DNA of 64,000 nt, taken from positions 124,001 to 188,000 of the forward strand of contig NOWV01000129.1 of the NCBI GenBank assembly GCA_003344405.1, read 5' to 3'. Origin of the DNA: Trichoplax sp. H2 (lineage: Eukaryota). The position numbers and the translations under genes are program-made. Positions 1,561 through 43,080 of the stretch are shown piece after piece (position 1 is the stretch's first letter; the number at the start of each line of letters is the position of its first letter). The notes below the pieces were generated by a model, which made no database searches, was not told the DNA's origin, and worked only from the letters and a program-made list of their open reading frames with translations.

Positions 1561-2512
1561 GCTATCATTATTTCATTCTAAAATTTATGCTATGTCCATG
1601 TTGGATATCCATTCAGATAGAGTCGATGTTGTCTACGACACTGGCGACTTTTGTCAACTACGTCTTACCATGTTGACGATATTGGTCATTGGGCAAGATG
1701 TCACTCTGTCTATTTTCTCGTGATACTGTATATCGAATCTACTTCATAAGGAATCCTAGCCTATTTTACGTTTATTTGGAGTGATGTTGATTTTTTTCTC
1801 CATTCTGTTACGACATCGATTGATTAATTCAAGTCAAATACCGTGAGGGATGGACTATCGGGTATTTCCAGTATTTACTCGTCTATGAAATGGTATACAA
1901 TGTGGGCAAGTATGGATTCTACTAGGGCTAAGTGAACTTTTCAATCATTCATCCTGGTGCATGATGACATTGATGATTACGTTTCATTTTCTTCTTATTT
2001 ATGGCCATAACGATCATTTTATACAAGTTTGAACGGTATCCTTGTCGATTTTACTCCTCTTTGACTAGTGGATTGCCTTGTTTCTATTCAGTGAAAGTGC
2101 AATTTTTTTTGTTTTTCATTGGGCTCAATGAATTGATCCACTGAAAGGATCGAGAATGTTGGTCAAGTGTAACTTCATAGACTGTCTACTTAGTACTATT
2201 TCATTGCATTACTTTGCTAGGGACTCATGGCTCTATTAGTACAAGGTTTTGAAGGTGTTTTCATGCTGGGAGAACAGAATAGACAGGAGAGAAATGGAAG
2301 TGAGTATTGAATGAAATCAAGTCTGTAAACATGGTGCGTCCGACTTAGTAAGGGGTTTTTACTCATTCATCGACCTGACTACCATCCTTTCTCATGCACT
2401 TAACTAACAAAATAAGTAGACTTTATTCCACATGCAACAACAGTCAAGATCGCTCTTGATCCTGCAGGTCAATAAGATGAAAATAGCCATGGATTAACAT
2501 TGCAATAGCTAC

Positions 2513-2554
2513 CTTTTCTTGTCCAGAAGGTGGTTCTTTGCCTGCATCCGCCAT
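2513..2554 (-). CDS. Probable first coding exon of an unidentified gene running leftwards (MADAGKEPPSGQEK)
   Basis: ATG in strong context (gccatcATGGCG), 14 codons, then AAG|GTAGCT donor. It lies just downstream of a GTAC tract, as the other housekeeping starts do. Downstream exons could not be assigned reliably (a possible one lies at ~75-190). Confidence 0.5.
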
Positions 2555-2659
2555 GATGGCTGGTGTCCAGTGCTGTACCTGTCATGCAATTCGACTGACA
2601 CTCCAGTACTGAGTGACTCGCGTTCGCTTCACTTCGCTAGGCACAACAATCATCCTGCT

Positions 2660-2795
2660 GGTACCGTACCGTACTGTACAATGCACTCTGTCATTTGTGT
2701 ACTGTACACTGTACTGTACTGTACAGTACAGTGTACAGTATGACGTCTACACGTTAATATACTGTACAGTACAGTACTGTACACTGTATGTACAG
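2660..2795. repeat. Palindromic GTAC-rich tract (CTGTA/TACAG units) in divergent promoter region
   Basis: Contains the perfect 20-bp palindrome ACTGTACTGTACAGTACAGT at 2713-2732 and many GTAC/TGTACA sites. Confidence 0.9.
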
Positions 2796-3505
2796 TCCAG
2801 TAATAATGCACTGGAGTGACCACCGCGGTGGGTGTGAGCCCTGCAAATTCCAACGCGTCAACGTGGTAGAATGATGTCACAGTCGACAGTCGGCCGCAGA
2901 TGCTTGACAATGAAGAGACATGACAAGTCCTAGCTACCGTACCGTCCGTAAATATGCAGTATCTGACTGTCTGCTGCCGTCTTGATCAAAAGCGATGTCA
3001 TCCCTATCAACATAACCAATGTGATAGTAAACAGGATGGTCGGGCCAGGGAAGCAAGCCAGTGTATGACATTCTTTTTACGCACTATCACTCATTCTATC
3101 AGGGAATTGGCTAGCAACATGGAGCATCACTAGCAAAAATAATGTCGTAATACGGCCTACAAATTAAACTAGCAAAATCGCTATGGGTGACATCATTTTT
3201 GTACTGATAGGAGGCACAAGAGTACCAGTACTGTAACCGTCCCAGACTGCATGTCACATGATCGTACCCGTCACCACAGCTTGGTTGACGTCCAGTTGAG
3301 TTGAGCCTCCTCTGATATCCTTGGTAACTGGACGCCATTTTTGCTCCTTGTTCAATGTCTTGCAACTATTGCTGGAAAAAAAAACACTCTTGGTTAGCGC
3401 TATAGACGACCGTTCAAGACTTCATAAAGCTGTAGAAAACAGATAGTTCAATCAATTTAGTGAAGAACATCAAGTTAAGCTTGTAGTGGAGTTGGTGGTG
3501 CAGTT

Positions 3506-5944
3506 ATGGCCATTTATGATTTTTACATTTTCCATCGAGAAGGTACTTGCATCTATTACTGCCAATGGCACGGCAAGAAACCGCCATCGCCGTCGGTGAC
3601 AGAGGTAAATGCAGTATGGATAATGTAATATTGATGCTTTAGCCTCTAGTTGAACTCTTCAGCCATAGCGAGTTGGTGATAAGACACGTCAGATCAGCGA
3701 CATACTAAATACGAAGAGCAAATGCATTGGCCAACTTTTGACACCGTTAGACGTATTACTATAAAAGTGTCGCTTAGCATGTTCTACTAGGAGTACAGTA
3801 ATAAGATGATTGGAAAACGACTAACGCTAGAACAACTGGTAGTGAGTGGAAGGGAATGATAGAAAGCAATCTACTGTACTGTGTTGGGCAAGATTTTCAA
3901 CATTTACCCTGCCTTTCCCAGCCAGATAAAGTCTTTTACTGCTATTGCCTGGCCGGTAGAAAATACTTTAAAATAAAATAAAGAAAATGAACCGAGATAC
4001 TGTAAGTGGTACATCGACCATACTGCAAAGACTCCTACAGTATGCCTACTCATATACAACATTGTATAGAAATTGTATATTGTAGCTACTTTGAAATCGA
4101 GAATGATCACATCAGATTGGTCTAGTTCCACAGATTGCAGTGGAGTAGAAATCATTTCTCTAGTTTTTCTGGGGGGTTTCTAAGGGTACTGTGGCTACAT
4201 TTAGGAAGACGCATCTGCAGCCTTAGAAGAACGGCAAATCGAAAATATTGGGATCTACATGGAGAAGACATACTTGTACACTTGAACTAGCCAAGATTGC
4301 GTTTTACATAGTAAATTATAGTGTAGCTACTAGTTCCACAGATTACCAATGGAGTACAGTAGAGATTATTTCTCTAGTTCCTCTAAAAGGTCTGTAGAGT
4401 ACAGTAGCTACATTCAGGAATGACGTATTTGCAGTCACAGGAGAAGAACAAAATCCAAATGTTAGAATCGACATTGAGAAGACATACTGTACAACTGCTA
4501 CATTTGACGAGGCAAGATCACATTTTGGATAGTGAATTATGTTGTAGCTACAGTTATAAGATAACAATAAAGTGGATCAACAATCAAGTTCGATGGCTAA
4601 TCGACCACATCGGATTCGTCTACTTTCACAGATTGCGAATGGAGTACAGTAGCCACATTTAGGAAAACGCATCTGTAGTCACAGGAGACAGGAATTTCAA
4701 ATGTAGGGATCGACGCAGAGAAGATGTACTGTATCACTCTGACACTTGAACTAAGCAAGATCGTATTTTAGATGGTCAATTGTATTGTAGTTGTCTGTCT
4801 CCTTAAAATCGAGCGACTACATCATCTACATTATCACAGATTGAAAATAGAGCACTGTAGCTATAATGCAAACCTACAGTCACAAGACACGAATTGATAA
4901 TATCGTCAAAATCAATAAAACAATCAATCACCAGTGTCACGACAATACGGCAATATAGAATAGATAAACTTTAATGTCAAATTGGCTAAGCTATGGCCTT
5001 GAAAGATAATTATTATAAAACTACTGTGCATACAGTCTCTGCTTTCTCATCTGCATTGCTCAATCGAATGCATTTCAGGAGCATCCTGAAACAATTGAAA
5101 TAAAATTCACATTATTAAATTTTACATCTTTCTTCAACAGCATAATTGCAAGCTGATGTATGGTTTACTCTACTCACTGAAATCATTCGTACTTCGAATC
5201 TCACCCACGGATGGGTAAGTTAGTGCTACTTATTCCTCGATCGATAAAAGATACTCGTGTACATATATATATACAGTACTGTAGTACTAGAATTTGTTAT
5301 ATCTACCTGAAATATAACGGTACTATTGTAATAGTCACTGTAAATTAAAAAAAAATTCAGCTACTTTGTAGCATAACAAAATTAAGGAAAACCAATTTCC
5401 ATGTTAACACATTAAACTTTGATGTGTATGTAATTGAAATATTTTTCATTAGTATAGCAACTAGACGAAAAAATAGAATCACCTTTATTTGTGTGCATTT
5501 TAATTCTTACATCATTTAGCAAGGATCAATTTTCCAGTTACCGGACTAGTAAATATAAGTTAAATTATTATGAAACTCCAAGTGGAATAAAGTTTGTCAT
5601 GACTACCGATTTGGGTGTTGGTAATATTAAAGATATTATGAAAAGTATATACAGAAAGGTAAATCAATTATACAATTGAATAAACATATTAACTTCAGAA
5701 TAAATATAGAATAGGATAAACTACCATTCCTAAGTGATAGATCTGGATACGTAATGCCATTTGGCTATGTCCTATATATTATACATAATAGCTGAATTTT
5801 GTTTCTCTCTTGTTTTAGATTTATGTGGAATATCTAGTCAAGAATCCATTTATTGATGTATCAAAGCCGGTTTCTAGTGAATTATTTGTTTCTAAACTAG
5901 ATGCTTATGTAAAAGAATTACCCTTTTTTGAACCCAAACAATGA
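3506..5944 (+). CDS. TRAPPC1: Trafficking protein particle complex subunit 1 (Bet5); 4 exons: 3506-3604, 5141-5214, 5520-5658, 5819-5944
   Basis: Spliced product MAIYDFYIFHREGTCIYYCQW...KLMYGLLYSLKSFV...YRTSKYKLNYYETPSGIKFVMTTD...IYVEYLVKNP...SELFVSKLDAYVKELPFF matches TRAPPC1 motifs. All introns GT-AG with consistent phases. Confidence 0.96.
3935..4870. repeat. Degenerate ~215-250 bp tandem repeats (~4 copies) in TRAPPC1 intron 1
   Basis: Motifs GTAGCTACATTTAGGAA..CGCATCTG, GAGAAGACATACT, GCAAGATC..TTTT and TCCACAGATTG recur near 4190, 4405, 4650 and 4860. Confidence 0.8.
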
Positions 5945-6496
5945 AATTGGCCTCTACAGTAGTGGTTTGAGAGTAGCATCAATTTAATGATATTGCAATA
6001 TATCTTTGAGAGAGAAAAGAGGATAGACTCCAATAATACTATGTACTGTATCACACTATGTATCTGCTCTAGGACGCTATCCATTTTTGGTGTATTAAAT
6101 TGGAATTACTACTTTGAAGCCTTGTAGACGCATACAGTATTTGAGCACTAAAGTGATTTATTCCAAGCTTGTTACAATAATTGTCGTAGTAGAAAGATTG
6201 GTAATTTGAATGTGCACATTGCTGTGTTTTTAATGGATAGAATGGGACTGATCAAGTGGGTATACATTGTATTAGCATGTTCAATGGTGTTGTATAGTTA
6301 TCTGATGAATGCATCAACAACACAAATGCTTGTGTGTGCGTTCAGTAAGCTGTTTACTGTGAAAAACCTTCATTTTTAATTTTGTACAGTATAGTAAAAT
6401 GAATATACTAAGTTAAGATACGAAAATTGTTTGTTATGATGTTTTACGTGGAATATAAGGTGTAATTTTAATTGTTTATTGATATTCACCAAACGA

Positions 6497-9400
6497 CTAG
6501 TTTGAACAATTATTATACATTGTAAAATAACATTTGGCTAATTTCAAAGCAAGTTTACACAAATTTTCCAGGGCTGTAATGAACAAAAGTAGAAATACTT
6601 TTAAGTGTAATCATACTGCGCTGGGTAGCTTAAAATAAGTATGAATTAATTATATGATGTTCTGTTGATACTTTTTTACAATAAAGTATACTATCAGATA
6701 AGGTAAATAAAATCTTGACATAGTCTATGTACAGTTGAATTTGTCATTACGATAAAACGTGGTTTCAATCCGGCTTGCTAATCTGATGGCACAGTTGCCT
6801 TGATTGCAAAAGACAGAGTGCTAGAAATCATAAATTAAAATTAGCTACTGCTGTAGGGAAAACTAGGATTGCTCGTTTTGCTGTTCCAATATACGATTGG
6901 TAGATATTAGTATTCGAGCGGTCAGCATTGGGCAGTTACAAAAGTAAATTTCTTCCAATAAATGAGGCGGTAATCGAGAAACATCCAATTGGCTGTTATC
7001 AAAACAAGGTGTATACAGATATTCCTCGGTTGTTTTATTGTATCTTACGGTGAATTCCAGTCCTAAATTGATAAATGAAGTAATAGAATAATTTTAAAAT
7101 TATTTTATAAATTATCTTTTACGATCTGATGGCTGTATTATGCATAGTTATCATATGGGTACAACTTCAATGCTAACATACTGCTTTGACAGGATTTATT
7201 TTACTTTGATGGATTTTATTGTCAAACCTTTTAAATCTTGTGATCGAATTTTGAATACTTCTTTGTCCTTATTAACACTACTAAGGGGTAAGGGCTCAAT
7301 ATCTAATCGATTAAACTTTTGATATGCTTTGATAGTCATCGCTTGTTCTTCGATAACGTGCTAAATAAAAATTGTTGATTTTTAATTTATATCTCATCAA
7401 AGTATGGTACCCTTGCTATTTCTAGACAACAAGGATAAGCGTACAAAGATAGGATATTGATTGATTTTATTCTTTCATTCTCACCCTCATCGCTTCAGTG
7501 TCAGGGCTTTCAATTCTACTGTTGCGCAAGTTGTTTAACCTTTCTCTAGCTTTATTTAATTGGTGCTGCAATTTCTTATTTTCATCCACTACAGTTTGCA
7601 TTTTGCTATGGTGACACTTGAAGTTCATTTCAGTTATGATATGCAACCGATGCAGGTGATCATTTAAGAAATTGTATCTTGTTAGCTAGTCCATTTAGTA
7701 TCCAGTATTTAACATACACGTATTAACGTCGCTTATTTCTATTCATGGTAGATGGATTATTACACTGGGTACCGATAACTTACCTCTAACGCGTCTGTTT
7801 GTGAATGATTCTGTTGATCATTATTATGCGCGTTGTCTCGGCTATCTTTTACACCTTGTAATTGCTTTTGCAGGTCTTGCTTTTCATCGATGATACTTTG
7901 TAATTTTTTTCGATATAATTCGATTTTTTCATCAGATACTGTAATAAGCAAAGATTGACTTTCAATTTAATTTGATTCTTTATTATACATTGTGGTATTG
8001 GATCACTAGATTAGATGCGTGTCTACATCTGCGATAGAATACATCTTAATGGAAGTAATTGATGTACAGGATTAGGAAATCCTTTTTTGTTCAGTTCAGT
8101 TCAGTTTGAATATACCTATATACTTATGTACTACTATCCTTTCTGCTACTGCAGTTGATCATTTTTATTTACGATAATAAACACAATATATCAAGTGTGC
8201 TGTATCATATGGCATGAAAGTTTCAACTCAGATCAACATCACCATGATATGACAATTTTCATATCAACATCGTGTGTAAGACAGGAAAAATAAATACTCA
8301 ATACTGCACTTACCTCGACAACGTTCTTGACAATCTAACTCTAATTGATGATAGCGTCGTTCGGGTTCAGTCTCTCTGGTTTCTAAAAGTTTTTCGAATA
8401 ATGCGCGGAAAGTATTTTCATCGGAAGGAATGGATTGATTTTCCTATTAGGTAGAGCATAACATTGCAATGGCTTATCACTTTGTAAGTACTGATTTATT
8501 TTATGCAAGGTGAAAACAGTGACGCACGTTTGACACAGTTTCAATGAGCAATATTGGATTCAAAGGTTCAAAAATGGTTGTATTCCATTTGTACACGTAT
8601 TGATCGTACATTGCATAGACAAATGTGGGATCAAGTGCATTACGACGGAAAAGAGTTACTAGTTTGGGGTATTTTCTCATCTAGTATAAGGCCTTGTATT
8701 AGAATCCTGTTAGTAGGGTTTTGATTGGATACACTTAGGACATAGATGTATTGGTAGTCGTATGACAAGATTACTAATAACATAAGGGCATAGGTTATTC
8801 AATATACAGTACTGTAATGGCAGTGGTACGATGAAATGACTAATGATGTAACAAGAACGACATTGATTGATGTACTGTTTTTTATTTCAGGGATAGATGG
8901 ATTGATGGAAAGCTACGTTCAAAATCAAGATATCATCTTGGTGGTTACAAGTAGGCTTTTCACTTTTATTGCAGAGTGATTTCAAATGAACTCTGTATTG
9001 TGATGATGTAGCGAACAATTTGGACAAGTCTGTCTACTGGTCAAGCGATGCATTGATTCAATAAACAACAATATTGTAAGCATTCATTGGCGTCCTACGT
9101 TGTTGATGGAGGCGATTGGATGATTGATGAATAAGCGAAAGACTATACTGTACGATGAAAAGAAGAGATGATGTTGATCGTTATTGTAGGCTGTGATGTG
9201 TGTTACAGAGTGATTTAAAATTGGAATGATGTATCAGGAATAGCCTAGGACAAGACTTTCTACTATGATGAATGGATGCATCCACTGTGTATTTTTCTAC
9301 ACGATCGTGAGGGAGTTTTGGACTGGGACAGGAAACTGCAGTACTATCAAGGCAACGAAACGTAGGACGAATACTCCAAGTTATTTGAAGCGTATTTCCC

Positions 9401-9529
9401 ACTGACCTTGGTCGACTTTGAAGTTTTCCTTGATTGATGTCTATTTCTTCTTGCCATTGGTGAATTTTCATGACTGGAGTCGAGAGGACGCTTGATCCTA
9501 GTATACCTCCTCGAGCTGCTGGTGGCCAT
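6497..9529 (-). CDS. Csm1/Pcs1-like (monopolin) kinetochore protein, coiled coil + RWD domain; exons ~9529-9407, 8443-8314, 7938-7784, ~7616-7485, 7360-7228, 7062-6940, 6573-6497
   Basis: Basic disordered N-terminus, then LLETRETEPERRYHQLELDCQERCRVSDEKIELYRKKL coiled coil, then IKAYQKFNRLDI..EVFKIRSQD..GLEFTVRY..EYLYTP..SRLPPHLLEEIYFSLENLCKLALKLAK. The last part resembles the Csm1 C-terminal signature as I recall it (IYAP..SKLPEYLFETLSFPLSSLNQFYNKIAK). The exon 3/4 junction is ambiguous (two phase-compatible solutions). Confidence 0.8.
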
Positions 9530-9594
9530 TTTAACAATTTGAATAATTTTGAATTTGACCGCTACCGTTAAAAGTTCCACAATAAATAGAAATG

Positions 9595-9970
9595 CTGCTG
9601 TACAGTGTACAGTACACTAGGGGACTGAGCTTACGATACATTGTACTGTACCTGCAGACCGTGCTAGTACAGTATGCACATTACTGTACAGTACTGTACT
9701 GTGCTGTACAGTACAGTACAGCATTTTTGAAGGATAAATACTGTACTGCAACCACTGTACACTGTACGAGACTGCAACAGAGGGTCGAGACAGACAGGCG
9801 CATAGTACAGTCGACGATGTACTGTACATTGTACTGTACACTGTATACAGTAGTACTGTACAGTACAGTACAAGGATTGTAGGCGTGCTTGTACTGTACT
9901 GTACAGTGTACGTACAGTATGTAGACTACAGTGTACAGTACACTACACTGTACATTGTAATGACAGTGCT
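9595..9970. repeat. Largest GTAC-rich palindromic tract, in the Csm1-like/WWOX divergent promoter
   Basis: Dense CTGTA/TACAG/GTACA units, e.g. palindrome GTACTGTACAGTAC at 9853-9866. It begins ~65 bp upstream of the Csm1-like ATG. Confidence 0.92.
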
Positions 9971-10044
9971 GCAAAATGGCGATTTGAAGGGAAACAACAG
10001 TCGTACCTTCTTCTGCAATGATTTCAAATCTGCAGGATACTGAC

Positions 10045-10170
10045 TGAATTCTAGTTTGAAAATTGCATCGATTGCTCCTTCATCTATCTTTTTATATCAA
10101 ATGACAGTGAATTCTAGTTTGAAAATTGCATCGATTGCTCCTTCATCTATCTTTTTATATCAAATGACAG
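10045..10170. repeat. Perfect 63-bp tandem duplication
   Basis: TGAATTCTAGTTTGAAAATTGCATCG...TATATCAAATGACAG occurs at 10045-10107 and 10108-10170. Confidence 0.97.
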
Positions 10171-10568
10171 GCAAATTTGACAGCTTGACTACAATTTAGA
10201 GCGCCTTACACCACTCCAATAACAACCGCCTCACACTCGTACACTACCGTACAGTCTACAGTCTACAGTATTTTGTGGCCAATGTGGACTGTACTAACGT
10301 ATCCAGCAACAGGATACGACTGGTCTGTCATAGACTCACGGTCGCCATCGCCATACCAATGCCTTGTACCTGGCCTGTTCCTTCAGCCAGTTGGTTGAAA
10401 AGTCAGTCCATCCGTCTAGGAGAAAGTAGGCACTACTTCGTCAACAGCATCCATTCAAAATGGCCAAGTAGGCAAAGTCGACACAATTCATTGCTTTTAC
10501 TCATCATCATCATCTGCCACAGTATCGCCATTCATTGATCATCTTCATCACAAGTAGGAGGACCAACG

Positions 10569-13500
10569 ATGCAAGTGTCTAATCTTTATAGCAACGACGC
10601 TGACACAACCAGTTCGGATGCTGATTCAGATCCTGAATTACTACCTGGCTGGGAGAAAAGTAAAACATCGACTGGAAGAACCTTTTACGTTGAGTGAGTT
10701 CTACAACATCGTTATCCATCATTCTACAGCCAGCATAATACAGTACTCCAATACAGACTGCATCATCATTCTTCATAACTTCTTTCGGTGTTCATTCCCT
10801 TGGCCATTTTCATTCTATTCAGGTTGCATCGTCTCACCGGCTATTATCAATCTCATCAGTCTATCATGTAGTTAGGCTGGAGTCCTTTGCTAAATACGCA
10901 TATCATGATACAATTGACTTTTGCTTTTGTAACAACAAACTTTTCCATGCATAATATGTATTGTATTGATCTACAGTTCGACAGCTAACTCAATACTCTA
11001 GTAGCGACTGGATGATTGTTGTTATTCCTTTTGGCTTGGGCTAATCGCTGATGCGTTTAGGCTAGAAATCAATTACTGTACTTATACGAGATTGACTTCT
11101 GCCTTCTTGTACTAGTCATGGCATAACAATCATTTACATCGAATGAATTCCGCTACACCTGCACTGTATTTGCTTTTATCCAAGGTTCTACAGCGAACAC
11201 AATACTCTAGTAAGGACTGCATGATGGTTGTTGTGATAGTCATAGACTTACCCATTTTCATTCCGGTTAGGCTAGGTTGGGCTAGTCTCTGCTACGATGA
11301 TGACGGCATATTTGTACCATGGAATGAGGCATTGATCCGGCTTAAGTCCTTTGCTAATCGGCTTCTGCCCTCGTATACAAATAATGTCGTCGTTGATATG
11401 AATACGATGTGATAATACTATTAGCCTGATTGTCATAATTCTTAAATCAACAAATGTGATAACCCTTAAAGCTTCTCCATGTAGCCAGGATTCTGATTCA
11501 TTTCAATTTAGTGTGCAATTACTTTCATGGTATTAAAGTCATCATGTAATCAAAGAATGTTGTCAATATGCAAAACAAGTACACATCAAATCCACGCATT
11601 AACCCCATGTTCACAGTCAAACTCACTTTGGCTTCTCCTGGTAGCCATAATTCTGTCTTAGTTGCCTTCCCCTTGTTCTCAACCAATCTGTATTACATTA
11701 CTTGTATGCTTGTACTACGTAAAAGTAATTTTGCAGTAATAGGATGTTGTCAAGGCTATTAATGATACTCATATAAATGGACTTTATCTTCATTTCTTTA
11801 TCGTTATAATGTACACGTTTACTATACTGTACAATGCTAACTGAAATACTGTACATGATTGTCTTATTGATAGCCATAATACTCAAACGACACAGTGGGA
11901 ACATCCGCAACGTAGCCACAAGAAACCGCATCAAAAGATCGGTAATGCACCATATACTAATGCTAGTGTAATTATGCTTTAATGTTGACAATCTTCACAC
12001 ATCAAGAAATCATAATAGAGCACTCTAGTTGCACTGTATGTTGTATTCATTCAATCATCCGTTGCTTAAGTTAATCATGGATGATCATCTTAGTCCATGC
12101 CTTATGCAATTCTCTTGTTGCACCGTATGTTGTGTTCATAAAATCGTCCATGGTATCAACTTACTGCTATTCTGTAGGTTACTCGTTCTTTGTGTTAATA
12201 AAGGTTAGCCATGCCAATTAGCAATTCAATAATTCCAATTCTAATCTCAGATTTACCATTTGGCTGGATTCAAATCAAGAACGAAAATGGTACAATTCTC
12301 TATGTCAAGTAAGTTGTTCATTAAAGTGTTACTCCAAAGTCATGATAGAAATGAACTACTGTAATCATAATCAATACGATTCCAAAGAGTTGATGCATTT
12401 TAATACTGTTAGAGTATGCAATAAAATTATTTAAATTAGGTAGCCATCAAGATATTCTTGTAATAATTTCGGTAATCGCATTTCAACAATCTTATTTAGT
12501 CAAAGAAATCAAAAGAAAACCTATGTAGATCCAAGATTAGCTTTTCGAATGAAGAAAAATCGCCGAGTATTTGATGCTGTTTCAACATCAATGGACGTCC
12601 TACAGGGTAGAAACTTATCCGGTGGAATTGCACTAATAACTGGAGCTACTAGCGGAATTGGTTAGTTTGTGGTCTTACTAGGTCTAAAATTAGTAATTTT
12701 ATTCGATTTGCTGCTTTTGAGTAGTTATGAGCCCTTTGTATATACGCGTAAAGTGTATATAACCTTAAAATCTCAATTTAAAGCTAGTACATCTGATCTA
12801 GTATAAATTTAGGAAAAATTTTAATTCATTACGATAGATAAGGGAATCATGGCTTATATTATTGTTATTTAGCATATAAAATTATGAATAATTCGTATTT
12901 ATTTCCATGTATGACAATGAATACCGTCAATGGTTATACACACACAATCAATTAGTATGTTATTACTTCATAAAGACGTAGACTACTGGGCAAATAGATA
13001 ACTTCAAAATTGATTAGTAAATTCAACATATCGGATACATGCTAAGTGCAGCCTAAGCTTATTTTTATCATGTAAAACTTGACTACACTCATAGATTTAT
13101 TAGAATATTGCTGCTCGATCGATACTGGTATTACATTCTAGCTCTGATATCATTGCTAGTAAATGATTGATTATTGTCTTATAGCCAAATTGCTGATCAA
13201 TGTTTAGGATTTGAGACCGCTCGAGCTCTCGCACTGCATGGGGCTTTAGTCATAATGGGCTGTCATGATATCGTAAAAGGATCTATCGCAGCAAAGAAGA
13301 TTACAAAAGAAGAGGTTCATCTACTCTTTAAATTACGAACAATTAAGATATGAGACCTATTCGTACAAGTTAAAAAAATGAGGCAGTTACCCATAATTTC
13401 TATTTGCAAATACTTCCCTTCTACTACTGTACATAATTATAGCAAGACTTAACTTTTTATATTTTCTGCCCTAATTATTCTGTGTTTTCATAGCCTCTGG

Positions 13501-14585
13501 CGAAGATTGACGTTATAGAAGTAGATCTATCGTCTTTAAAGAGTATAGCATGCTTAGCTGATGAAGTTTTAAAAAAATACAGGTCGGCAACTTTATGGGA
13601 TTACTACGTGAAAAATTACCTTGACTAAGGTCTGATCAATCTTGTATTACTTGTATCATTCAGGCAATTACATGTAATCATTTGTAATGCTGGTGTATTG
13701 GGATTACCGTGGAGACTAACTACGGACGAATTGGAATACACTTTTACTGTGAATTATATTGGTCATTTTTATCTCGTAAAATTGTTAACTGAGCTTCTTA
13801 TTTCCTCCTCGCCGGCAAGAGTTGTTGTTATTTCTTCTGAGTCTCACAGGTCTGCTGAATTATGCTTGTCAAACATTCACATATTATCGCATTAAGAATT
13901 GACGTCTTTTGCATTGCAATTTCATTTTAGATTTCCCACTACTGATGGAAGTTCGTTTAATGTGGAAAATATTCTACCTTCAAAACAGCAATTTATCCCA
14001 ATGGAGGCTTATAATCAATCCAAATTATGTGGAATATTATTTAGTAACGAATTCAATCGTAAATATTCATGCTACGGTGTGACGTCGAATGCGGTTCACC
14101 CAGGCAATTTATTGCCAACTTCGCTATGTCGAAATTCATGGTTTTATACAATTTTATTTTTATTGGCTAGGCCTTTTGCTAAGTCTACTGTAAGTAGCAT
14201 TGCTAATGAATGATATAGATGTATTCGATATTTCGCAGTACGCTAAAGTTATAAGAACCTCAACAAATTTAATATATTAAGATCAACAAGCTTGCTACTA
14301 CTCGTATCCGTATTCCACAATTAGTATAATTTTATAATATGAAATTTGATGGATAGTTTATTTCTCTCGTTTTAATTGTTATAATCATTTTAGGTGCAAG
14401 GTGCTGCTACGACTACTTTTTGTGCAGCAGCTAGAGAGTTGAATGGTGTTGGCGGTTCTTATTTTAATAATTGCCAACGCTGTGATCCATCGCCTGAATC
14501 TCAAAATGAAGAGTTAGCAAGAGCTCTATGGAAATATACTGAAAGTTTATTAAGCTGTAGAACGATTCGGTTACTTCCTCAATAA
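10569..14585 (+). CDS. WWOX: WW domain-containing oxidoreductase; exons ~10569-10693, 11874-11941, 12251-12308, 12500-12660, 13208-13314, 13494-13582, 13664-13848, 13931-14189, 14394-14585
   Basis: WW1 ([30 protein letters not shown]), WW2 ([16 protein letters not shown]) and an SDR domain with [23 protein letters not shown], catalytic AYNQSK and QGAATT. Confidence 0.97.
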
Positions 14586-16177
14586 ATTAATAAATTCTGT
14601 ATTTATAAATTATTATGAACCATTTCCTCGATCATGAGTAGTCAAATGAAATTCTTATATGCCACCCAAATCCTAAACTACCACCGTATGTACATATTTT
14701 ATTAGGATAAATAATTATTTGCTGTGTTATTGATACAGTATATCCTGATAGTTATTATTGTTATAATTAGAGATAATAAATATCCACTATAATCATGACA
14801 AATTACTTAATGAATACTATGTAAACGTGTATCATTTTATTTGCTGTTAATGCATCAATTTTATACCTCTTAACTGACTGAAAATAAAGCTGTTTCTACC
14901 TAAGGTGCTATCTGAATCGGATCAATACAAATATATCATTAATTAACGGAGATGATAATAACAATAAAAGCATAATCTAAGGCGGTAATAATTAATCAAC
15001 ACAATAGATGACAAGTACGAGTAATAGTAACAAAAAGTTTAGAAATCGTAAACTAAGCTATAAATCGTAATAGGCTTATACCTTATTTCTTGCAAGTAGG
15101 AAAGCGTGCAATCGATCTTGTAGTTCATCAGGATATTTTTCAAAGTTGGTGAGCGCCAGTATTTACTCGTATAAACGAAAATAGGTACTCTTTCTTTTGT
15201 ACTAGTACGTAGAATACTAGAATTAGTGTCAATCTAGTACTCCATGAGTAACTCACTTTAAGATACATCTGGCACATTGCTCGATATAAAATTTAGCTTG
15301 TTTTGTTTTAACGCGACACAATCAATGCTTGGCTTCACTACGTTCAAATTTAAATAAACTCGTGTCGAAAAATTAATCAATGTGACAAGATAGCCATTAA
15401 AAAGATCACTTGCTATTACATGATGTATATATTTATTTATTGTAATCCACACAATTTTTACTTATCCAGAGATAATATGCATTTCTTTACAAGACCATTC
15501 CTGAAGTTATAAATCATTATTTATATAATTAATTACCTTATTTACAACATCGAGATAGACAGCGCAAAGTGAGTTCTATTGCTTTAAATGTTATGACATT
15601 ACTATGCATAAAACAACTTGAAGGCTCTTCCGCTTAAATTAAAAAATAATAATGACAGTACAGTCATGAATGAATGCTTAAAAAGCGTTTTAGCTGAATG
15701 TATATCATGCAGTCGTTTAGTAAGAATTTCTATAATTACAATGATACTAGTACATAATTTAAACCTGTTTTTATCATTTCGTAAAACTATCATTGCAATT
15801 ATACATATAAAATGCAGAGGCTCAGCACTTGTCATGGTTAAATTTATGGACAAGGAAAACGTGAGCGAAACTTGAACATTTGGTAGTTTCTATTAGGGTT
15901 ATTAACTGTAAATGTCCGATGCTCTTCGAATAGTATTAAGTACGGCGTCCACTCATTGCAATTGCTGAAAAATTATAACTTCTTTCAACTAATGTAGTTG
16001 TTTCACAATTTAATAACAAGTCGAAGTACTAATTGAATGATAATTAACGTTAAAATAATTCATTTTTCGTGACATTTAAAATATCAAAAATCATTGTACA
16101 GTAGTTTGGTTTCACGCACATTGAAATATGCAAAATGCAATTATTATAATGAAATACGACGAAAAGCCAACTTTAAC

Positions 16178-22853
<6,676 letters not shown>

Positions 22854-23214
22854 CTTGATGGAGTGGATTGAGCAAATAACGCAAGCGCACCTCCTTCCTT
22901 TGTGCAGGTCACCCTTTGGGTGGCGTCTTGCTGTTTTTACCTTCACCCTCCAACCCCGAGTGAAGCCAAAGTGAATGAGACGTGATGACTGTATGAAGCG
23001 CTTCGTTCGTTTTCTATTCAATGGAAAGCTGCCTTGTCAGTCATCCATCCGCTCTTCCTGTCAGCTCAGTCTCATTGAACTACAGTTGACTACTGTATGG
23101 GTATTCGATTTATTTTCTCCTCAATCGAAAGCGGCCTTCGATCTGTCCAGTCTTCTGTCCTTCATGAAATTCGACGTTGATCCGATCCGGTTCTGCTCCG
23201 GACCTCGGTCCGCA

Positions 23215-23280
23215 GAGGTACAGTGCAAAGTACTGACTGGTCTGACGAGAGCTACTGTACACTGTACACTGTACTCTCCA
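23215..23280. repeat. Short GTAC-rich tract upstream of ATG16L1
   Basis: GGTACAGTGCAAAGTACTG...CTACTGTACACTGTACACTGTACT. Confidence 0.75.
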
Positions 23281-23329
23281 AGTCTCTAGTCTGGACGGAG
23301 AAGAAGTTTTGCTGATGTCGGTGCAAGCA

Positions 23330-24560
23330 AATGTCGAAAAATTGAGAAAATTTGCGAGTTTGTGCAATTGATTTTCCATTTTCAATTCAATTTTATACCA
23401 CAACGAAAGAGAACGAGTTGATTGACAAGATTCCGTCGTCGAACTATCAGTGCAGTACTCAGTGTACGCACTGTACAGTACTGTACTGTATTAACCAATC
23501 CTATTTCGTAGCATTTGTGCCTATAAAGGGAGTTGAATTTTGGGCAATTTTGGTATAAGCAATTGTAGAAAAGTGGCGAGCTGGTGCAATCAATTTTGCA
23601 TTTTCAATGCAATTTTATACCAAACGAAACAGAATGAGTTGATTGACAAGATTCCGTCGTCAAACTATCAATACAGTACTCAGTGTACGCACCGTACTGT
23701 ATTGACCAATTCTATGTTGTAGTATTTGTGCCTATAAAGGGAGAAGAATTTATTTTTGGCGATTTTGATACATGCAAATGTAGGAAAGTGGCGAGCTTGT
23801 GCAATCGATTTTCCATTTTCAATGCAATTTTATACCAAACGAAAGAGAACGAGTTGATTGACAAGATTCTGTCGTCAAATTATCAGTACAGTACTCAGTG
23901 TACGCACTGTACTGTATTGATCAATTCTATTTTGTAGCATTTATGCCTATAAAGGGAGTTGAATTTTGGGCAATTTTGGTACAAGCAATTGTAGAAAAAT
24001 GGCGAGCTTGTGCAATCGATTTTCCACTCAATTTTATACCAAACGAAAGAGAATGAGTTGATTGACAAGACTCCATCGTCAAACTATCGGTGCAGTACTC
24101 AGTGTACGCACCGTACTGTATTGACCAATTCTATGTTGTAGCATTTGTGCCTATAATAAAGGGAGAACAATTTATTTTTGGCGATTTTGATACATGCAAA
24201 TGTAGGAAAGTTGCGAGCTGGTGCAATCGATTTTCCATTTCAATTTTATACCAAACGAAAGAGAATGAGTTGATTGACAAGACTCCTTCGTCAAACTATC
24301 AGTACAGTACTCAGTGTATGCACTGTACTGTATTGACCAATTCTATGTTGTAGCATTTGTGCCTATAAAGGGAGTTGAATTTTTGACAATTTTGGTACAA
24401 GCAATTGCAGAAAAGTGGCGAGCTTGTGCAATCGATTTTCAATGCAATTTTATACCAAATGAAAGAGAATGAGTTGATTGACAAGACTCCATCGTCAAAC
24501 TATCAGTGCAGTACTCAGTCTACGTACTGGACTGTATTGACCAATTCTATTTTGTAGCAT
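23330..24560. repeat. Tandem array of ~6 units of ~205-220 bp with alternating A/B variants
   Basis: Anchor GAGTTGATTGACAAGA recurs at ~23415, 23636, 23851, 24055, 24267 and 24471. Unit tails alternate between GAGTTGAATTTT.. and GAGAA.AATTTATTTTTGGCG.. Confidence 0.97.
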
Positions 24561-24594
24561 GAGTAGCTAGGAATAACTTTATGACGAGACTGAA

Positions 24595-25395
24595 CTGCTG
24601 TACTGGAAAGCTCCAAGCTGATTTTTTACTGACAGTACAGTATACTGAAGCAGCGTTCATTGCCATGGACATTACACACTGTACACGAATAGTACTACGC
24701 TACTGTATACTGGGAATTGGGACAAAGTCGCTATCATGGCGAGCCAGAGCATTGCAATGGAAGATCTTTGGAATCTGTCAGTCATGCTCTTGTTAGAAAC
24801 TTGAGCTATGCTATGCCAACCCATGATTAACCCGCAGTCTAAAGCTGACAACTCTGGTACCAGCTATGCTGTACTCAAGAATAGAATTGTTCCTATCCAT
24901 TGCACAGTATCTTAATCATTTGCCAGCTATTTTGCATCCAAGTCATTCTCCGCTCAGTAATGCAAAGAATCGTAGGTTCTCCTCCATTTCTATCATCGAT
25001 ACTCTTCACAGTGAAGGCTTGCTTCCATGCTAAACCATTCAGCATCAAATGTCCTAAGTCATAGAAGAAAAGTATCGGTTGTCTTGCATGATTGGGATTC
25101 AGTGCCCCTTCCTTGCTAGCCACAGTCATTTGCATACAACTCGCTCTGCATTCCCACTGTTCATGAACAAGTAGCACTGCACCTCCATGCTCAATTGCTC
25201 ATTTAGGAAATTAGATCGCTTCGCGGCGTCATAATCGATCATGGATCGGTAACCTTAACTGTTCGACACCGTCATTTTGCCTACTCTGCACTTGGCTAAA
25301 TGCCTTGAAGAAAATAAATCAATATCAATATAGGGTAATAATATTGTCATATTGATTAACTGTATACTAGTGTACACTGTACAGTATAGAGAGCA
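24595..25395. promoter_or_regulatory. PIN4 upstream region with GTAC-rich patches (24595-24710, 25360-25395)
   Basis: ACAGTACAGTATACTG, CACTGTACAC and CTGTATACTAGTGTACACTGTACAGTATAG, the last ~80 bp upstream of the PIN4 ATG. Confidence 0.5.
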
Positions 25396-25468
25396 CGAGA
25401 CGGATATACGTACTACAGGACCTGAACCATTTCGAGAGCGAGTTCGGTAGTCCAAGCCCATCGTCAAC

Positions 25469-27188
25469 ATGCCTAAGAAAGGCCAAGCTAAAGGTAAACC
25501 TCCATCAAATGGAGAAAATGAAAGCAATCATTGCATCTACCATTTTTTATAGTCTATAAAATAGACCAGCAAGATTGTCGTTTGACGAATGTAGTCATGG
25601 AATAGGGCTATCGTAATCAAATTGATAGGAGCTATTTTTATTCTAGATTTACCTTTGCCTACATGACCAATTTTGGCCCTTGTTTGCAAGGATTGAATTA
25701 GGTCATGCAACGATCGTAGTTTTGTTATTTTACGATCAGCCAACCACTGGAATAGCATGATACTACGCTACACTACTGTCGAAGTAATCATATTAAACGT
25801 AGATGGTATCAATCGAGTTGTTCAAACTCTTCATATCATAACATTGACTGCATGACAGACGTCATTGCCAATGCTACACAAGGTGTTTGGTTAATGAACG
25901 CAACCAGTTTAGTCGGTTGGCAACGCTGTGATGAATGGCTTGAATTGAATTTGATATTGCATTTTGTGTATAGTCTATCTTATAAATAATAAATATGCTA
26001 TTTCTACCCTGCATATATTTCATCAAGGCAAAGGGAGCTCATCCACTAGTGCAGCAGAATCAGCTACATCTTCCGATAAGAAAAAGGGCAAGAGTAAAGG
26101 TGGCACTGCTGTAAAGGTAAGCCTACGACAAGAAACCTTGACAACGCTGCTACGCCATGGCATCATGATGCAGTAGCATTTGAGTGCATTCGATAAAATG
26201 GTCCTTAGTGTTTTATCGATGGCAGATACAGCGTGATTATTAGAATGGCTCTACTGACGGTGCTATAAAATAGAAGATATCTGCAATTACGTATAGATTG
26301 AAGCTAGGCTGCTACCCATTGAATGATGGTTCATTGCATTCACATCTCTAAAATTAATTTACTATTACAAATACAGTAGTTCATTCCACTAGTACACCTT
26401 CAGTATTCTCTTATTATACTTGCTAGGTTCGACATATACTATGTGAAAAACACTCTAAAGTTATGGAAGCTATGGCCAAATTAAAGGAAGGAATTGCTTT
26501 CAATCAAGTAGCTACGCAATACAGTGAAGATAAAGCTAGACAAGGGGTAAGCAAGCAACACAAAATACAGCATAAGATAGTCTTGGACCTAGAACGGGCG
26601 ATAATTACTGTAGTGTTACATAAATCTCGTTCAGTAAAAATAGATGGCAAATTTTTAGTAAATAGTTGTAAGTAATCACGATATTGATAGTCTTACTTGT
26701 TATACTAGGGTGATCTAGGATGGATGACTCGGGGATCAATGGTAATAAGTTTGCTATACTTACACTTAAATTAGGCATTGCTGTCATGATAACAGTTGTT
26801 GTACTTATCTAATCCGTTGTTGCAATGCAGAAATGTACTTTAGCCAATTGTCATCTTTTTCTTTGGCATTGTGAATCATTGAATCGAATGAATAACCTAA
26901 TTAAAATTGCACAGTGGCTACAAAACCATTTTAACTTGCAGCCTAATTACTTTTCTTTTGCATGATTGAGGAAATAACGCAACATGTAGAATTATAATGT
27001 CTAATAGATATGGTAGCTTTCTGTATATCTTTCTAAGCAATCTTCTGCATGTAACTGCTTAGGTTGGACCATTTCAAGAAGCTGCCTTTAACTTGGAACC
27101 TAGCACGGTAGCCAGTCCATCATATACAGACCCACCAGTTAAAACTAAATTTGGTTATCACATCATTATGATTGAAGGGAAAAAGTAG
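25469..27188 (+). CDS. PIN4: Parvulin-type peptidyl-prolyl isomerase PIN4 (Par14); exons 25469-25493, 26028-26116, 26427-26546, 26709-26741, 27063-27188
   Basis: [94 protein letters not shown]. Confidence 0.98.
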
Positions 27189-28626
27189 AATAACTACATG
27201 AGTGCTAAATTTAGGCACGTCATTTTTAAGCGTTGTATATATATCGTAAGATATTATTTGTAAGCAGTCACGATGTGTTCATTTCTATAACGTAATATCT
27301 TGTAAAATCATGGTAGCGTCAATTTCAATACCACACAAATTTAGAGATGTTTGGTTTATTATTGCCGCCATGGCATGGATGCTGGCACAGTGAGATAATG
27401 TTGATATGCGAGAAGACGGATATGGTGGCTATTCTACTTTACCTTCCGAAATTGAGGAATAATTGACGTTGACATAGACGATGCTAAAATGTGTGATACA
27501 ACCGAGAACACAAAAATAGCATTTATTTTGATATCAACGCCTCAAAATAGGCTTCCCAATAGAGTAGAAGATGAAAACTATCCCTTATTGGAAATATTTC
27601 TATTTAGGATTTATTGAACTAGATTAAAAAGAATAAATGATTACAACGTTCAGGATCAACTCTAATAAATTGATATTATGCCATTTTACTCTAAAGTTTA
27701 TATACGTGTATTTCTTCGTCGCATCAAAGCTTCTATTTCTGTCTTACCATATAGAAAGATTGAATGTATTTTTCAATTGTTGACAAGACTACAACGTTAG
27801 ATTAAAATATCTAGCTAATCTCTACTAAGACCACTTTACAGTTTTGAGAGAGGAATAAATAACAAGTGGGATAATATCATCTCTGTAACTTCTTGATGAA
27901 ATGTTTCAGCCAGTGTTTGAATATCTGCCAGATCCAATTTAATGTATTAAAATACGAAAGTTAGGAGTTAATACTTCAAGCCATTTCGTATCTAACCTGA
28001 GTCATGGATTTTCTATAGAGTGTATTACTATAAAGTTTTAGAAAAATTATGTCTGCTATAATTTCCCTATCAAGATCGCGCTAAAGGTTACATGCTCATC
28101 GTTAAAATGCCATATTAGTATCACAACGCCCTATTGCAAACTATCATGCTATTGACTAATTTATTGTTCGATGATATACCCTTTACGCGTGCTAAAATTA
28201 GAAATTTTATTAATAAAAAAGGCTAATTTTTATCGATACAAGATACAGCTGAATAATGAATCATTAAGAGAGTAAGCATAACAATGTAGTAAACTGTTAT
28301 TTAAACTGAACGTGAGAATTTTAATATTGTGGTTATATCCTGCCAAATAAATATCTCCAAGTAGCAGCATTAACAAAAATTGAGTAAAAGTATATTCAAA
28401 TATCTCCTTTAAAGTTTGGTAGTTAAGATACAGAATCAATCAATTCTATTACTTATCAACATAAAATAGGTTCAATTAACAATAATTATAATTATCAGAA
28501 AATGCCCTGTTGGGTTGATATCTGACCTCTTTTGTAGATCCCTTGAGGAAAGTTGTTTTATTACAGTAGTTGATTTTGATCACTTTTTAAAGCTTTTCGT
28601 TACATGAATTAGTTAAAAGCATTATA

Positions 28627-28960
28627 CTTTTGTCTTTAAGTGCAGTAAAATCATATTTAGTTATTAGTAGCAAATTGTGCCTAGTAAACACAACAAGAAC
28701 GTAGCTTCCATTTTATACTTTTAGCAGATTTTGAGAAGCAGCCAGTAGAAATATAGATAAATAGGAACATTCAAACTGAAATATAAGTTAATATTTTTGT
28801 CTTTTCAAGTGCAGTAAAATCATTCTTTCAAGTTATTATTAACAGATTATGCCTGGTTAGCACAACAAAGAAGTAGCTTCTATTTCATCATTTTTAGCAG
28901 ATTCAAGAAGTAGCTAGCAGAAACATAAATAAATAGAAATATTCAAATTGAAATATAAGT
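28627..28960. repeat. Diverged ~167-bp tandem duplication
   Basis: TTTTGTCTTT..AAGTGCAGTAAAATCAT...GTAGCTTC...TTCAAA.TGAAATATAAGTT at ~28627 and ~28794. Confidence 0.85.
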
Positions 28961-29254
28961 TGAAAAAGGTACTATTTGACAATGGAAAGGAAATAGCAAG
29001 AAAAAACGTTTTAAACATAGGATAGTAATGAATAGCTCGCAGTCGTTTCAGGAAAACAAATAAGATGATTCATTGCTATCGTCATATTAGCTGTAAAATG
29101 ATTAAAATGATTCATTGCTGTATTATTAGACTAAACATGGTACCAGTTGGAGATTCTAATTAAAATGAGATTGAATAGTGATAGTCACAATTCTATTATA
29201 CCTAAAAAGATCCGTACTTGTAATTTATTTAATATAGCAATGAAATGTAAGACT

Positions 29255-29788: not shown

Positions 29789-30895
29789 TCATGATTCCGG
29801 TATGGTTATTTTGGTAATGGATACTTGCTGTGCTGATAAACATGTACTTGCACTGGCGCTCTTTTTTATAGGAAGACTTGATCTTGGCGATTGCACAGGG
29901 GTAGAACCCACACGATGTCGACGACGTGGTAAATCTTTTGTAGGTCGATTACAAGACAAGTATCGATGGATAAATAACTTTAGTTTCCGTCGTAAGATAC
30001 CATTAGTAAGTGTATATAATATTGGATTAACTGCCGTATTTAAGAACGTAAGTAAATAAGCCATTCTCTGAGTAGAAGGTGGTAAGAATTGGTTTTGTGT
30101 TGGAGCAGACGATTCCGCGATGGCGAGTACCAATAATGGTACCCAACACAACATATTAGTGCCAACAATTAAAGATGTTGTTCTAATAGATTTTTTCAGA
30201 TTTCGATCTTGAAAGTAACCAGCTACATTTTTACTGTAAGCAACAATAAAAATAACAATGTAACAAGTGATAGTCACGCTAACACCAACGATTAAATAAC
30301 TACTAATAACATAACCATAGACATAATTGGTTGTGTTGACTCCTTTGACATCTAAATTACACAAGACACTAAATCGATACCCATTTAAACCCACAATTTT
30401 GCCTAGTAATGGCATAGTAGCATAGCAAAAAGGAACAAGCCATGCTATAACAATTTGAAAGATGGCTTTGTTGACGGTCATTCTCGAGCGATAAAAGAAC
30501 GGATTAGTGACTGCGATACAGCGATCAATGCTAATAAGAGCAGTGGTAAAAAGTGAAGTACCCATAATCCAAATCAGGAGAAAGCCTTGAAAATTACATA
30601 GTCCTTGTGATAATTGATTATATGCGTAGCACATATTGGTTACAATAATGCTTGGCAAGACTAACAGCGCACTAATTAAATCCGTCACGGCTAAATTGGC
30701 AATAAATAGTGTATCTACATCTTGTTTTAATGATGTCCGACAGACGATGGTTAAGCAGAAAGTGTTACCTAAACCAGACACGATCATAATGATCACAGCT
30801 CCTGGAATAAAGTAATATATAAAAGCACTAGATGGTTGCCATTGATCCAATGTAGTAGCTTCCGTACTGACATTGGTAGTAGTGAGATCAATCAT
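29789..30895 (-). CDS. Intronless class A (rhodopsin-like) GPCR, orphan
   Basis: 368-aa ORF with 7 hydrophobic segments, GN (TM1), NLAVTD (TM2), Cys at the top of TM3, DRC, TM4 Trp, CWVP (TM6), NPILY (TM7) and an N-terminal NVS sequon. Confidence 0.97.
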   Translation of the reverse strand: MIDLTTTNVSTEATTLDQWQPSSAFIYYFIPGAVIIMIVSGLGNTFCLTIVCRTSLKQDVDTLFIANLAVTDLISALLVLPSIIVTNMCYAYNQLSQGLCNFQGFLLIWIMGTSLFTTALISIDRCIAVTNPFFYRSRMTVNKAIFQIVIAWLVPFCYATMPLLGKIVGLNGYRFSVLCNLDVKGVNTTNYVYGYVISSYLIVGVSVTITCYIVIFIVAYSKNVAGYFQDRNLKKSIRTTSLIVGTNMLCWVPLLVLAIAESSAPTQNQFLPPSTQRMAYLLTFLNTAVNPILYTLTNGILRRKLKLFIHRYLSCNRPTKDLPRRRHRVGSTPVQSPRSSLPIKKSASASTCLSAQQVSITKITIPES

Positions 30896-42674: not shown

Positions 42675-43080
42675 TCATGCCGAAAGTAGATCCCTTGCTA
42701 ATAGTGTTCTGCATCGTACTGAGAAATCACTCAAATGAATGGACTTTTCCATTTTTAATAAAATTGTTTTGTCCGGGATCAAGCATCCATTTCATGCCCG
42801 TAGTAGATCCCTTGCTAATGGTGTTCTACATCGCACTGAGAAGTCACTCAAATGAATGGACTTCTCTATTCTTAATAAGATTGTTTTGTCCAAGGATCAA
42901 GCATCCATTTCATGCTGAAAGTAGATCCCTTGCTAATAGTGTTCTACATTGTACTGAGAAGTTACTCAAACGAATGGACTTCTCTATTCTTAATAAGATT
43001 GTTTTATCAAGGGATCAAGCATCCATTTCATGCTGAAAGTAGATTCCTTGCTAGTAGTATTCTGCATCGTAGTGAGAAGT
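42675..43080. repeat. ~118-bp tandem repeat, ~3.5 copies (remnant at ~43255-43300)
   Basis: TCATGC.GAAAGTAGATCCCTTGCTAAT at ~42675, 42792, 42910 and 43028; GGATCAAGCATCCATTTCATG at the unit ends. Confidence 0.95.

Follow-up and report, generated by a model that had tools for sequence, protein, structure and literature searches.

The closest described relative of the tracts reported here is the major microsatellite of Trichoplax adhaerens, the pentanucleotide repeat ACAGT (Wang, Zhang, Meyer and Bao 2010, Biol Direct 5:18; PMC2871265). Counting perfect tracts longer than 12 bp, that study found 11,697 microsatellites, 7,233 of them pentanucleotide repeats, with ACAGT making up 78% of the pentanucleotide class. 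The genome has one gene per about 8 kb, and of the ACAGT loci 54% are found no more than 1 kb, and 85% no more than 5 kb, upstream of a gene. Translation and protein modification are over-represented among the genes nearby, and a transcription factor-binding role was put forward for the repeat. In 2026, two repeating motifs, ACAGT and ACGG, emerged de novo when the Chimaera network was applied to Micro-C data of T. adhaerens (NAR 2026; PMC12817080); there ACGG, not ACAGT, is tied to a transposon and corresponds to the transposon-linked motif of Kim et al. The latter (Kim et al. 2025, Nature 642:1097; PMC12221973) described promoter hubs for about one third of placozoan genes, of housekeeping type and with a specific promoter motif, together with Mutator insertions in hub promoters and Mutator TIRs that contain the hub motif. 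All statements on these three papers refer to parts of their text. Literature searches with the motif letters plus "placozoa" or "Trichoplax" returned no paper beyond these three; those with "promoter" led to nothing but unrelated sites and primers, the letters occurring in PMC11482795 and in PMC6067683 solely within primer tables. A word search of a paper on promoters of the sponge Amphimedon (PMC4773876) had none of the terms sought, and a sponge origin of the window, considered at first, was rejected in view of the exon matches below.

For the stretch of DNA analysed here (64 kb, the window), a sequence-only reading had proposed that self-complementary, GTAC-rich tracts form a lineage-specific promoter mark. 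The exons of the window identify its origin: with the WW domain-containing oxidoreductase of Trichoplax sp. H2, exon 13896-14210 shares 97% identity and the majority of the exons of this protein reach 100%, and the 5' exon to the left of array 2 is 100% identical to T. adhaerens TRIADDRAFT_61676 and to TrispH2_008118. The host genome is therefore that of Trichoplax, so that the tracts belong to the already published feature. Like the class of Wang et al., they combine a Trichoplax host, a perfect repeat longer than 12 bp and a position within 1 kb upstream of a gene, and we regard it as nearly certain that they belong to the (ACAGT)n/(ACTGT)n microsatellites, the class that is dominant in the Trichoplax genome and lies upstream of genes. 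The feature has been known since 2010 and was touched on again in 2026, and the window is a rediscovery of it. New relative to the published ACAGT repeat are the orientation flips, a heptamer kept at two spacings, and the lack of a transposon-like TSD or of common flanks.

The tract at 9595-9970 is full of GTAC-cored pentamers, GTACA and GTACT, which amount to ACAGT/ACTGT repeats. In the whole window GTACWGTAC was observed 29 times against 0.43 ± 0.67 expected (maximum 3) from 100 dinucleotide-preserving shuffles of the 64 kb; the corresponding values were 327 against 185 ± 12 for GTAC and 274 against 141 ± 10 for ACAGT plus ACTGT. Three ATG-to-ATG intervals between head-to-head genes, together 4.6 kb or 7% of the window, hold 26 of the 29 GTACWGTAC (8 in 2554-3506, 14 in 9529-10569 and 4 in 22853-25469), the three sites outside being at 985, 53773 and 61059. 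All six perfect ACAGT-class tracts longer than 12 bp (13-17 bp, at 2708, 2764, 9706, 9858, 9890 and 23478) likewise fall inside these divergent intergenic intervals; five of them lie 66-750 bp from the nearer flanking ATG, and tract 23478 lies 625 bp from ATG 22853. Counted per 500 bp, TACAGTA plus TACTGTA reach 19 in 9501-10000, 10 in 2501-3000 and 5, 4, 3 and 2 in the four bins of 23001-25000, with 0-2 in most of the remaining bins.

These counts confirm what had been observed in the letters. GTAC-rich tracts are present where they had been placed, they thin out through first introns in 3001-6500 (16 heptamers in 3.5 kb), and they are largely absent from the gene-poor stretches at 31-44 kb and 56-64 kb (0 and 1 GTACWGTAC, respectively). 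Dense arrays had been claimed near all three head-to-head pairs; this applies to the two main arrays, while the minor sites at 10246-10269, 23218-23274, 24632-24706 and 25359-25387 are far weaker, with about three units each at most (Table 1). In each pair one ATG lies 66-110 bp from the nearest array edge (for the many-exon gene the distance is 366 bp); the opposite ATG is 300-713 bp away in pairs 1 and 2, and arrays reach out to about 450 bp upstream of the ATG. Tandem Repeats Finder reported periods of 5, 7, 10, 12 and 17 inside the tracts, its row in array 1 covering 2697-2740. The notion of a CpG-island analogue did not survive as CpG enrichment: the observed/expected ratio of the whole window is 0.88, and those of the promoter intervals are lower (0.68, 0.66 and 0.80), so the intervals carry no CpG-island signature and the term can serve only as a functional analogy.

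Table 1. Coordinates of the features discussed, numbered from the first letter of the window
Feature	Start	End	Strand	Description
Pair 1 minus gene, first coding exon	2513	2554	-	ATG 2554; MADAGKEPPSGQEK; donor just left of 2513
Array 1	2661	2793		GTAC-cored pentamers in both orientations, first two units ACCGT; 107 bp upstream of minus-strand ATG 2554 and 713 bp upstream of plus-strand ATG 3506
Palindrome in array 1	2700	2740		Perfect, 41 bp; 20-nt arms 2700-2719/2721-2740, 1-nt spacer, 100% complementary
Short CCGTACCGTCCGT run	2937	2950		Reverse complement is an ACGG-type repeat
TRAPPC1-like gene (inferred), start	3506	3625	+	ATG 3506; 40-codon open frame MAIYDFYIFHREG...
TRIADDRAFT_61676/TrispH2_008118, exon 1	9407	9529	-	ATG 9529; gene extends down to 6866; exon 1 100% identity
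Array 2	9595	9970		14 GTACWGTAC; two hairpin-capable modules, ~9590-9726 and ~9814-9958; 66 bp upstream of minus-strand ATG 9529 and 599 bp upstream of WWOX ATG 10569
Perfect 20-nt inverted repeat in array 2	9855	9907		Arms 9855-9874/9888-9907, 13-nt spacer
63-bp unit, two copies	10045	10170		100% identity; between array 2 and WWOX start; no GTAC motif
Mini-array	10246	10269		ACCGT, then three ACAGT units at 7-bp spacing; 300 bp upstream of WWOX ATG
WWOX, exon 1	10569	10694	+	ATG 10569; gene extends to 14582
Pair 3 minus gene, first coding exon	22751	22853	-	ATG 22853; many exons (~15.5-22.9 kb); intron 1 is 20467-22750
Sub-array	23218	23274		One ACAGT, then three ACTGTAC at 7-bp spacing; ~366 bp upstream of minus-strand ATG 22853
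Tandem repeat	23340	24560		Unit ~204 bp (416-bp higher order), ~5.8 copies, 85-89% alike
Sparse sites	24632	24706		One ACAGTACAGT and two single ACTGT units
Small site	25359	25387		Palindromic junction ACTGTACAGT; ~83 bp upstream of plus-strand ATG 25469
Parvulin (PIN4)-like gene, predicted exon 1	25469	25493	+	MPKKGQAK, then GTAAAC

The head-to-head arrangement was judged from ATG positions and was confirmed at that level for all three pairs, which make up a small promoter sample (n = 3 divergent pairs). Contigs of four public runs (X14, X18, X19 and X20, with X19 and X20 on record as RNA) were compared with 2001-22000. At the donor of the pair 1 minus gene, contigs of X20 and X18 depart from the window sequence at 2513; 16 letters of this loose end, sought in the window for the second exon of the gene with ATG 2554, had no match there. 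On the other side of the pair, exon 5458-5676 matches Pfam Sybindin (E 5.5e-10), and we infer that it forms one TRAPPC1-like gene with the frame opened by ATG 3506. For intron 1 of the pair 3 minus gene, an X18 loose end at 20466 continues in the window letters from 22751. The name parvulin (PIN4)-like is our own reading of a predicted gene, exon 26427-26672 of which matches Pfam Rotamase_3 with E 0.0021, a score below the curated cut-off. Pfam gave no family for the exon-1 open reading frames 9350-9616 and 22743-23036, nor for the open reading frames 24896-25198, 3114-3365, 21101-21361 and 6866-7093. The label "housekeeping" for the array-bearing genes would follow from gene identity only.

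Two further observations concern gene models. On the minus strand, 7485-7622 is an extra exon of the TrispH2_008118/TRIADDRAFT_61676 gene with 96% identity, for which 246-aa and 290-aa models exist (T. adhaerens and Trichoplax sp. H2, respectively); this one-exon difference is probably one of annotation or isoform. The region that separates the tandem repeat from the parvulin-like gene holds, at 24893-25135 (minus), an 80-codon ATG-to-stop frame without a Pfam match; if this frame were a real gene, it and the parvulin-like gene would form the true head-to-head pair, and 24632-24706 would fall on the 3' side of the frame.

Within the tracts, the conserved unit is the heptamer ACTGTAC rather than the phase of the repeat. 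The spacer base in GTACNGTAC is T in 16, A in 13, C in 2 and G in none of the 31 cases (A/T in 29/31), and three-base spacers are ACT or AGT in 8 of 10, which preserves ACTGTAC whether the spacing is 5 bp or 7 bp. The units also change orientation: 12 of the 27 pentamer junctions in the window (44%) are inverted and 15 are direct, and the flip junctions ACTGTACAGT and ACAGTACTGT are each a 10-bp palindrome. As a set of (GTACW)n arrays with which to compare orientation we used 113 metagenome contigs selected for (GTACW)4GTAC. Among the 113 matches listed, 103 of 1,944 junctions are inverted (5%; 1,841 direct), so that orientation mixing is about eightfold higher in the window (Fisher p 7e-9), on a set that was picked for longer in-phase runs than the window has and may thereby favour homogeneous arrays. 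Among the same matches listed, 74 of the 113 loci are without any flip and 11 have at least 30% inverted junctions. The statement that the tracts are no simple slippage microsatellite thus agrees with the junction counts. Orientation-mixed GTAC pentamer arrays were also seen in a few metagenome contigs (L084 1184-1531, L073 1300-1565, L074 774-1024 and L076 816-989), which resemble the Trichoplax promoter tracts, in some cases with ACCGT units, and L084 shows a higher-order repeat of about 50 bp.

We arrived at a reading in which the tracts are a Trichoplax promoter microsatellite that acts as a binding platform, a full explanation to which we give a probability of about 50%. It is drawn from the placement in three divergent intervals, the near A/T-only spacer, the heptamer at two spacings and the orientation flips. 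The same fine structure bears on a neutral alternative, in which slippage and fold-back errors of replication generate a functionless microsatellite and maintain it preferentially where promoter DNA is open and transcribed. The arrays do behave like microsatellites, which speaks against a binding platform and for the neutral alternative: they are pentanucleotide repeats that vary in length between paralogous copies by a 10-bp indel, (GTACW)n arrays exist in the DNA of many other organisms (at least 113 metagenome contigs), and palindromic repeats can spread via hairpin-mediated template switching. Some promoters also do without them, since no array lies within 1 kb upstream of the single-exon GPCR gene at 29792-30895 (minus; database matches 40%, unnamed) or of the thymidylate-kinase-like gene (minus, ATG near 54.88 kb), which is arguably housekeeping and has one ACTGTACTGT about 1 kb upstream. 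However, a by-product of this kind does not account well for a spacer that is A or T in 29 of 31 cases, for a heptamer kept across two spacings or for orientation mixing eight times that of ordinary arrays. Nor does it sit well with 54% of the loci falling within 1 kb upstream at about 8 kb per gene (PMC2871265), or with a network trained on contact maps alone picking out ACAGT (PMC12817080), and we consider it unlikely. The published 54% and the window data both support the lineage-specific promoter mark that the sequence-only reading had proposed.

The tandem repeat of pair 3 offers a view of the motif in paralogous copies. Each ~204-bp unit has a GTAC motif pair just upstream of a CCAAT box, then a TATAAAG-like TATAAAGGG and then a stretch with AATTTTGG-like runs, so that the motif pair occupies the position of an upstream promoter element, and from its sequence each unit looks like a small promoter. 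Among the six units, unit 1 is longer by 10 bp (ACTGTACAGT), and in units 2 and 4 ACCGT replaces ACTGT. At 2661-2680 and 10246-10255, too, ACCGT keeps the phase of the ACTGT units. Being both in phase and alternating between paralogous tandem copies, ACCGT and ACTGT connect two motifs that are listed apart in PMC12817080, where the ACGG-type repeat is the second T. adhaerens motif named.

Other repeats of the window were noted alongside. As a small-RNA gene array, 23340-24560 was rejected, there being no Rfam match at gathering scores, and Rfam (gathering scores) together with an ARAGORN tRNA search returned nothing in the window. The 63-bp tandem duplication at 10045-10170 looks very recent. 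Further minisatellites at 42675-43081 (period 118 bp), 691-908 (45), 1231-1513 (145) and 28624-28961 (172) contain no GTAC motif arrays and agree with the published 2.4% minisatellite content of the Trichoplax genome.

The order of elements in the tandem units also weighs on a second alternative, in which the CAGT core of each ACAGT unit is initiator-like and the tract is a row of start sites, with (ACAGT)n serving the plus gene and (ACTGT)n the minus gene. ACAGT may resemble the fly initiator TCAGTY, and array 1 runs (ACTGT)n then (ACAGT)n, an order that would be divergent on the initiator reading. In addition, ACAGT remains the commonest pentanucleotide in ESTs (PMC2871265), and array-bearing contigs of the RNA runs X19 and X20 pile up on both arrays, which hints that the tracts are transcribed somewhere, DNA carry-over being also possible. 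Against start sites, the motif of the tandem units lies upstream, not downstream, of the CCAAT and TATAAAG-like boxes, the orientations in array 2 are mixed with no clear left/right split, and arrays reach 450 bp from the ATG; RNA libraries can contain DNA, and the contigs show no 5' ends. Taken together, we find a row of initiators quite improbable.

The contigs of the four runs also show how far the tracts extend beyond the window. Summed depth is highest in the two array-holding bins for X14, X19 and X20, and not for X18; in X14 it amounts to 353 and 221 in these bins and to 20 or less in the others. Of the loose ends among the rows listed, 21 of 24 fall in arrays, with a flank agreement of 0.44-0.73, and some contigs connect array 1 to array 2 with foreign letters in between. 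The highest depth on the arrays, with disagreeing flanks, indicates that many other loci of Trichoplax carry these tracts among different neighbours.

A third alternative is that of transposon remnants, in which the tracts would be TIRs or miniature derivatives of a Mutator-type DNA transposon entering active promoters, an origin that has been proposed for the hub motif of placozoans. Mutator insertions leave a TSD of 9-11 bp. At six boundary pairs no such TSD was found, the best direct repeat being 3-6 bp with ±4 bp slack. The 6-bp TGCTGC is directly repeated around array 2 (9593-9598 and 9967-9972, again with ±4 bp slack), an arrangement that could be chance, with an estimated probability of about 2%; should it instead record an old insertion, it would favour a transposon, as do the two hairpin-capable modules of array 2, of about 140 bp each, the ACCGT units in phase with ACTGT units, and the published Mutator insertions in hub promoters and hub motif in Mutator TIRs (PMC12221973). 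The inverted arms in arrays 1 and 2 consist of the palindrome-cored repeat itself and are therefore uninformative on TIRs. On the other hand, array-to-array similarity in a within-window blastn comparison ends at the motif tract and never enters the flanks, and the flanks of the array-bearing contigs disagree. The 0.13% of the genome that consists of transposable elements includes 6 MuDR fragments and a single MITE family (about 20 copies), compared with ACAGT loci in the thousands (PMC2871265), and it is ACGG rather than ACAGT that was assigned to a transposon (PMC12817080). An origin from transposons is accordingly improbable. A single dispersed transposon family, which the sequence-only reading had itself set against its proposal, was not borne out in the window, where neither a TSD nor common flanks were found.

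The self-complementarity that had been claimed is strong. Folded as single-stranded DNA, 9585-9975 reaches -88.5 kcal/mol, compared with -61.9 ± 4.2 in shuffled sequences (z -6.3), none of the 100 being as stable, and the tracts contain perfect 20-nt inverted arms. The 7-bp-spaced irregularity of the palindrome in array 1 is mirrored in both of its arms, and the arms of the inverted repeat in array 2 include non-motif bases (CAAG/CTTG), which points to a true inverted duplication. Folding predictions thus suggest that a cruciform potential of the tracts exists. Could the structure then suffice without any reader, DNA mechanics alone acting through cruciform extrusion or by disfavouring nucleosomes? 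The folding z of -6.3 and the perfect palindromes (41 bp, and 20+13+20 bp) would fit, and each unit holds TA and CA/TG steps, which are flexible DNA steps. Yet homogeneous (ACAGT)n, which is incapable of forming hairpins, occurs in the same arrays, 15 of the 27 junctions are direct, and the smaller promoter sites have too few units for extrusion, which leaves structure on its own as a very improbable explanation.

Among the mechanisms that the sequence-only reading had listed, a multimeric transcription-factor site is the best-supported. As for the binding-platform reading itself, we hold only tentatively, as something short of an even bet, that the tracts are a multivalent platform for a placozoan promoter or architectural factor. 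Each would be a cluster of sites for a putative sequence-specific DNA-binding protein of placozoans, which recognizes the heptamer ACTGTAC (GTACAGT) and in many cases meets it as a dyad, ACTGTACAGT or ACAGTACTGT; adjacent sites in number would allow multivalent, orientation-free binding. Such binding would hold the promoter shared by two genes in an open, insulating state, and it may also contribute to the contacts between promoters that have been described in placozoans. The arrays would be made and resized by slippage and small inverted duplications, with the heptamer kept by selection. The placement, the enrichment, the constant heptamer, the mixed orientations and the published associations, genome-wide and with contact maps, are observed; both that a protein binds and what its binding does are inferred parts of this mechanism. 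We know of no placozoan protein that reads the ACAGT repeat.

A broader and more speculative reading, which we think has a rather low chance of being correct, is that ACAGT/ACTGT and the ACGG-type units (ACCGT/ACGGT) are variants of one GTACN lattice with the core TAC[G/T]G, recognized by one placozoan-specific architectural protein, and that the orientation-mixed, dyad-rich arrays between divergent genes are promoter-hub anchors. Leads towards it in the window are the ACCGT units in phase with ACTGT and the alternation of the two between tandem copies. Conceivable readers of such a lattice are a domesticated transposase and a Myb/SANT-like factor. Placozoan genomes are compact and have very few transposons, yet about one third of their genes gather in promoter hubs (PMC12221973), and a repeat at thousands of promoters is an obvious bait for the hub protein. 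The fine structure described here defines the bait oligonucleotide: the kept heptamer, the dyad junctions and the A/T-only spacer.

The known systems compare with the tracts at several levels. With the (ACAGT)n of Wang et al. (PMC2871265) they share the organism group, the repeat unit, the gene-upstream position and the proposal of transcription factor binding, and they are the same feature; in the parts of that paper drawn on here, nothing is said of mixed orientations, of palindromes, of variants spaced at 7 bp or of a location between divergent gene pairs. The ACAGT motif of PMC12817080 is the same pentamer repeat, linked there to genome folding by a model-derived association, and ACAGT and ACGG appear as separate motifs, whereas in the window ACCGT (reverse complement ACGGT) is in phase with ACTGT. 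The hub motif of Kim et al. (PMC12221973) lies in promoters of broadly expressed genes and is conserved in four placozoan species, with a proposed architectural protein; it is found in Mutator TIRs, while no transposon hallmarks were found at the tracts of the window, and the likeness between the two is one of description. In the T. adhaerens maps predicted in PMC12817080, an inserted fly M1BP motif has an effect, owing to a shared 4-nt pattern.

Ordinary (GTACW)n slippage microsatellites share the pentamer and reach at least 24 bp in at least 113 metagenome contigs, with 5% flips against 44% here. In flies, M1BP Motif 1, the BEAF-32/DREF sites and the (GA)n of GAGA factor are short, often repeated motifs at broadly expressed and often divergent promoters; these housekeeping and insulator motifs keep chromatin open and insulate, and the factors that bind them are known proteins. 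Their likeness to the Trichoplax tracts is a functional analogy between unrelated sequences and lineages. If the one-lattice reading were true, the arrays would correspond, on the basis of a microsatellite, to CTCF sites, CpG islands or the housekeeping insulators of flies.
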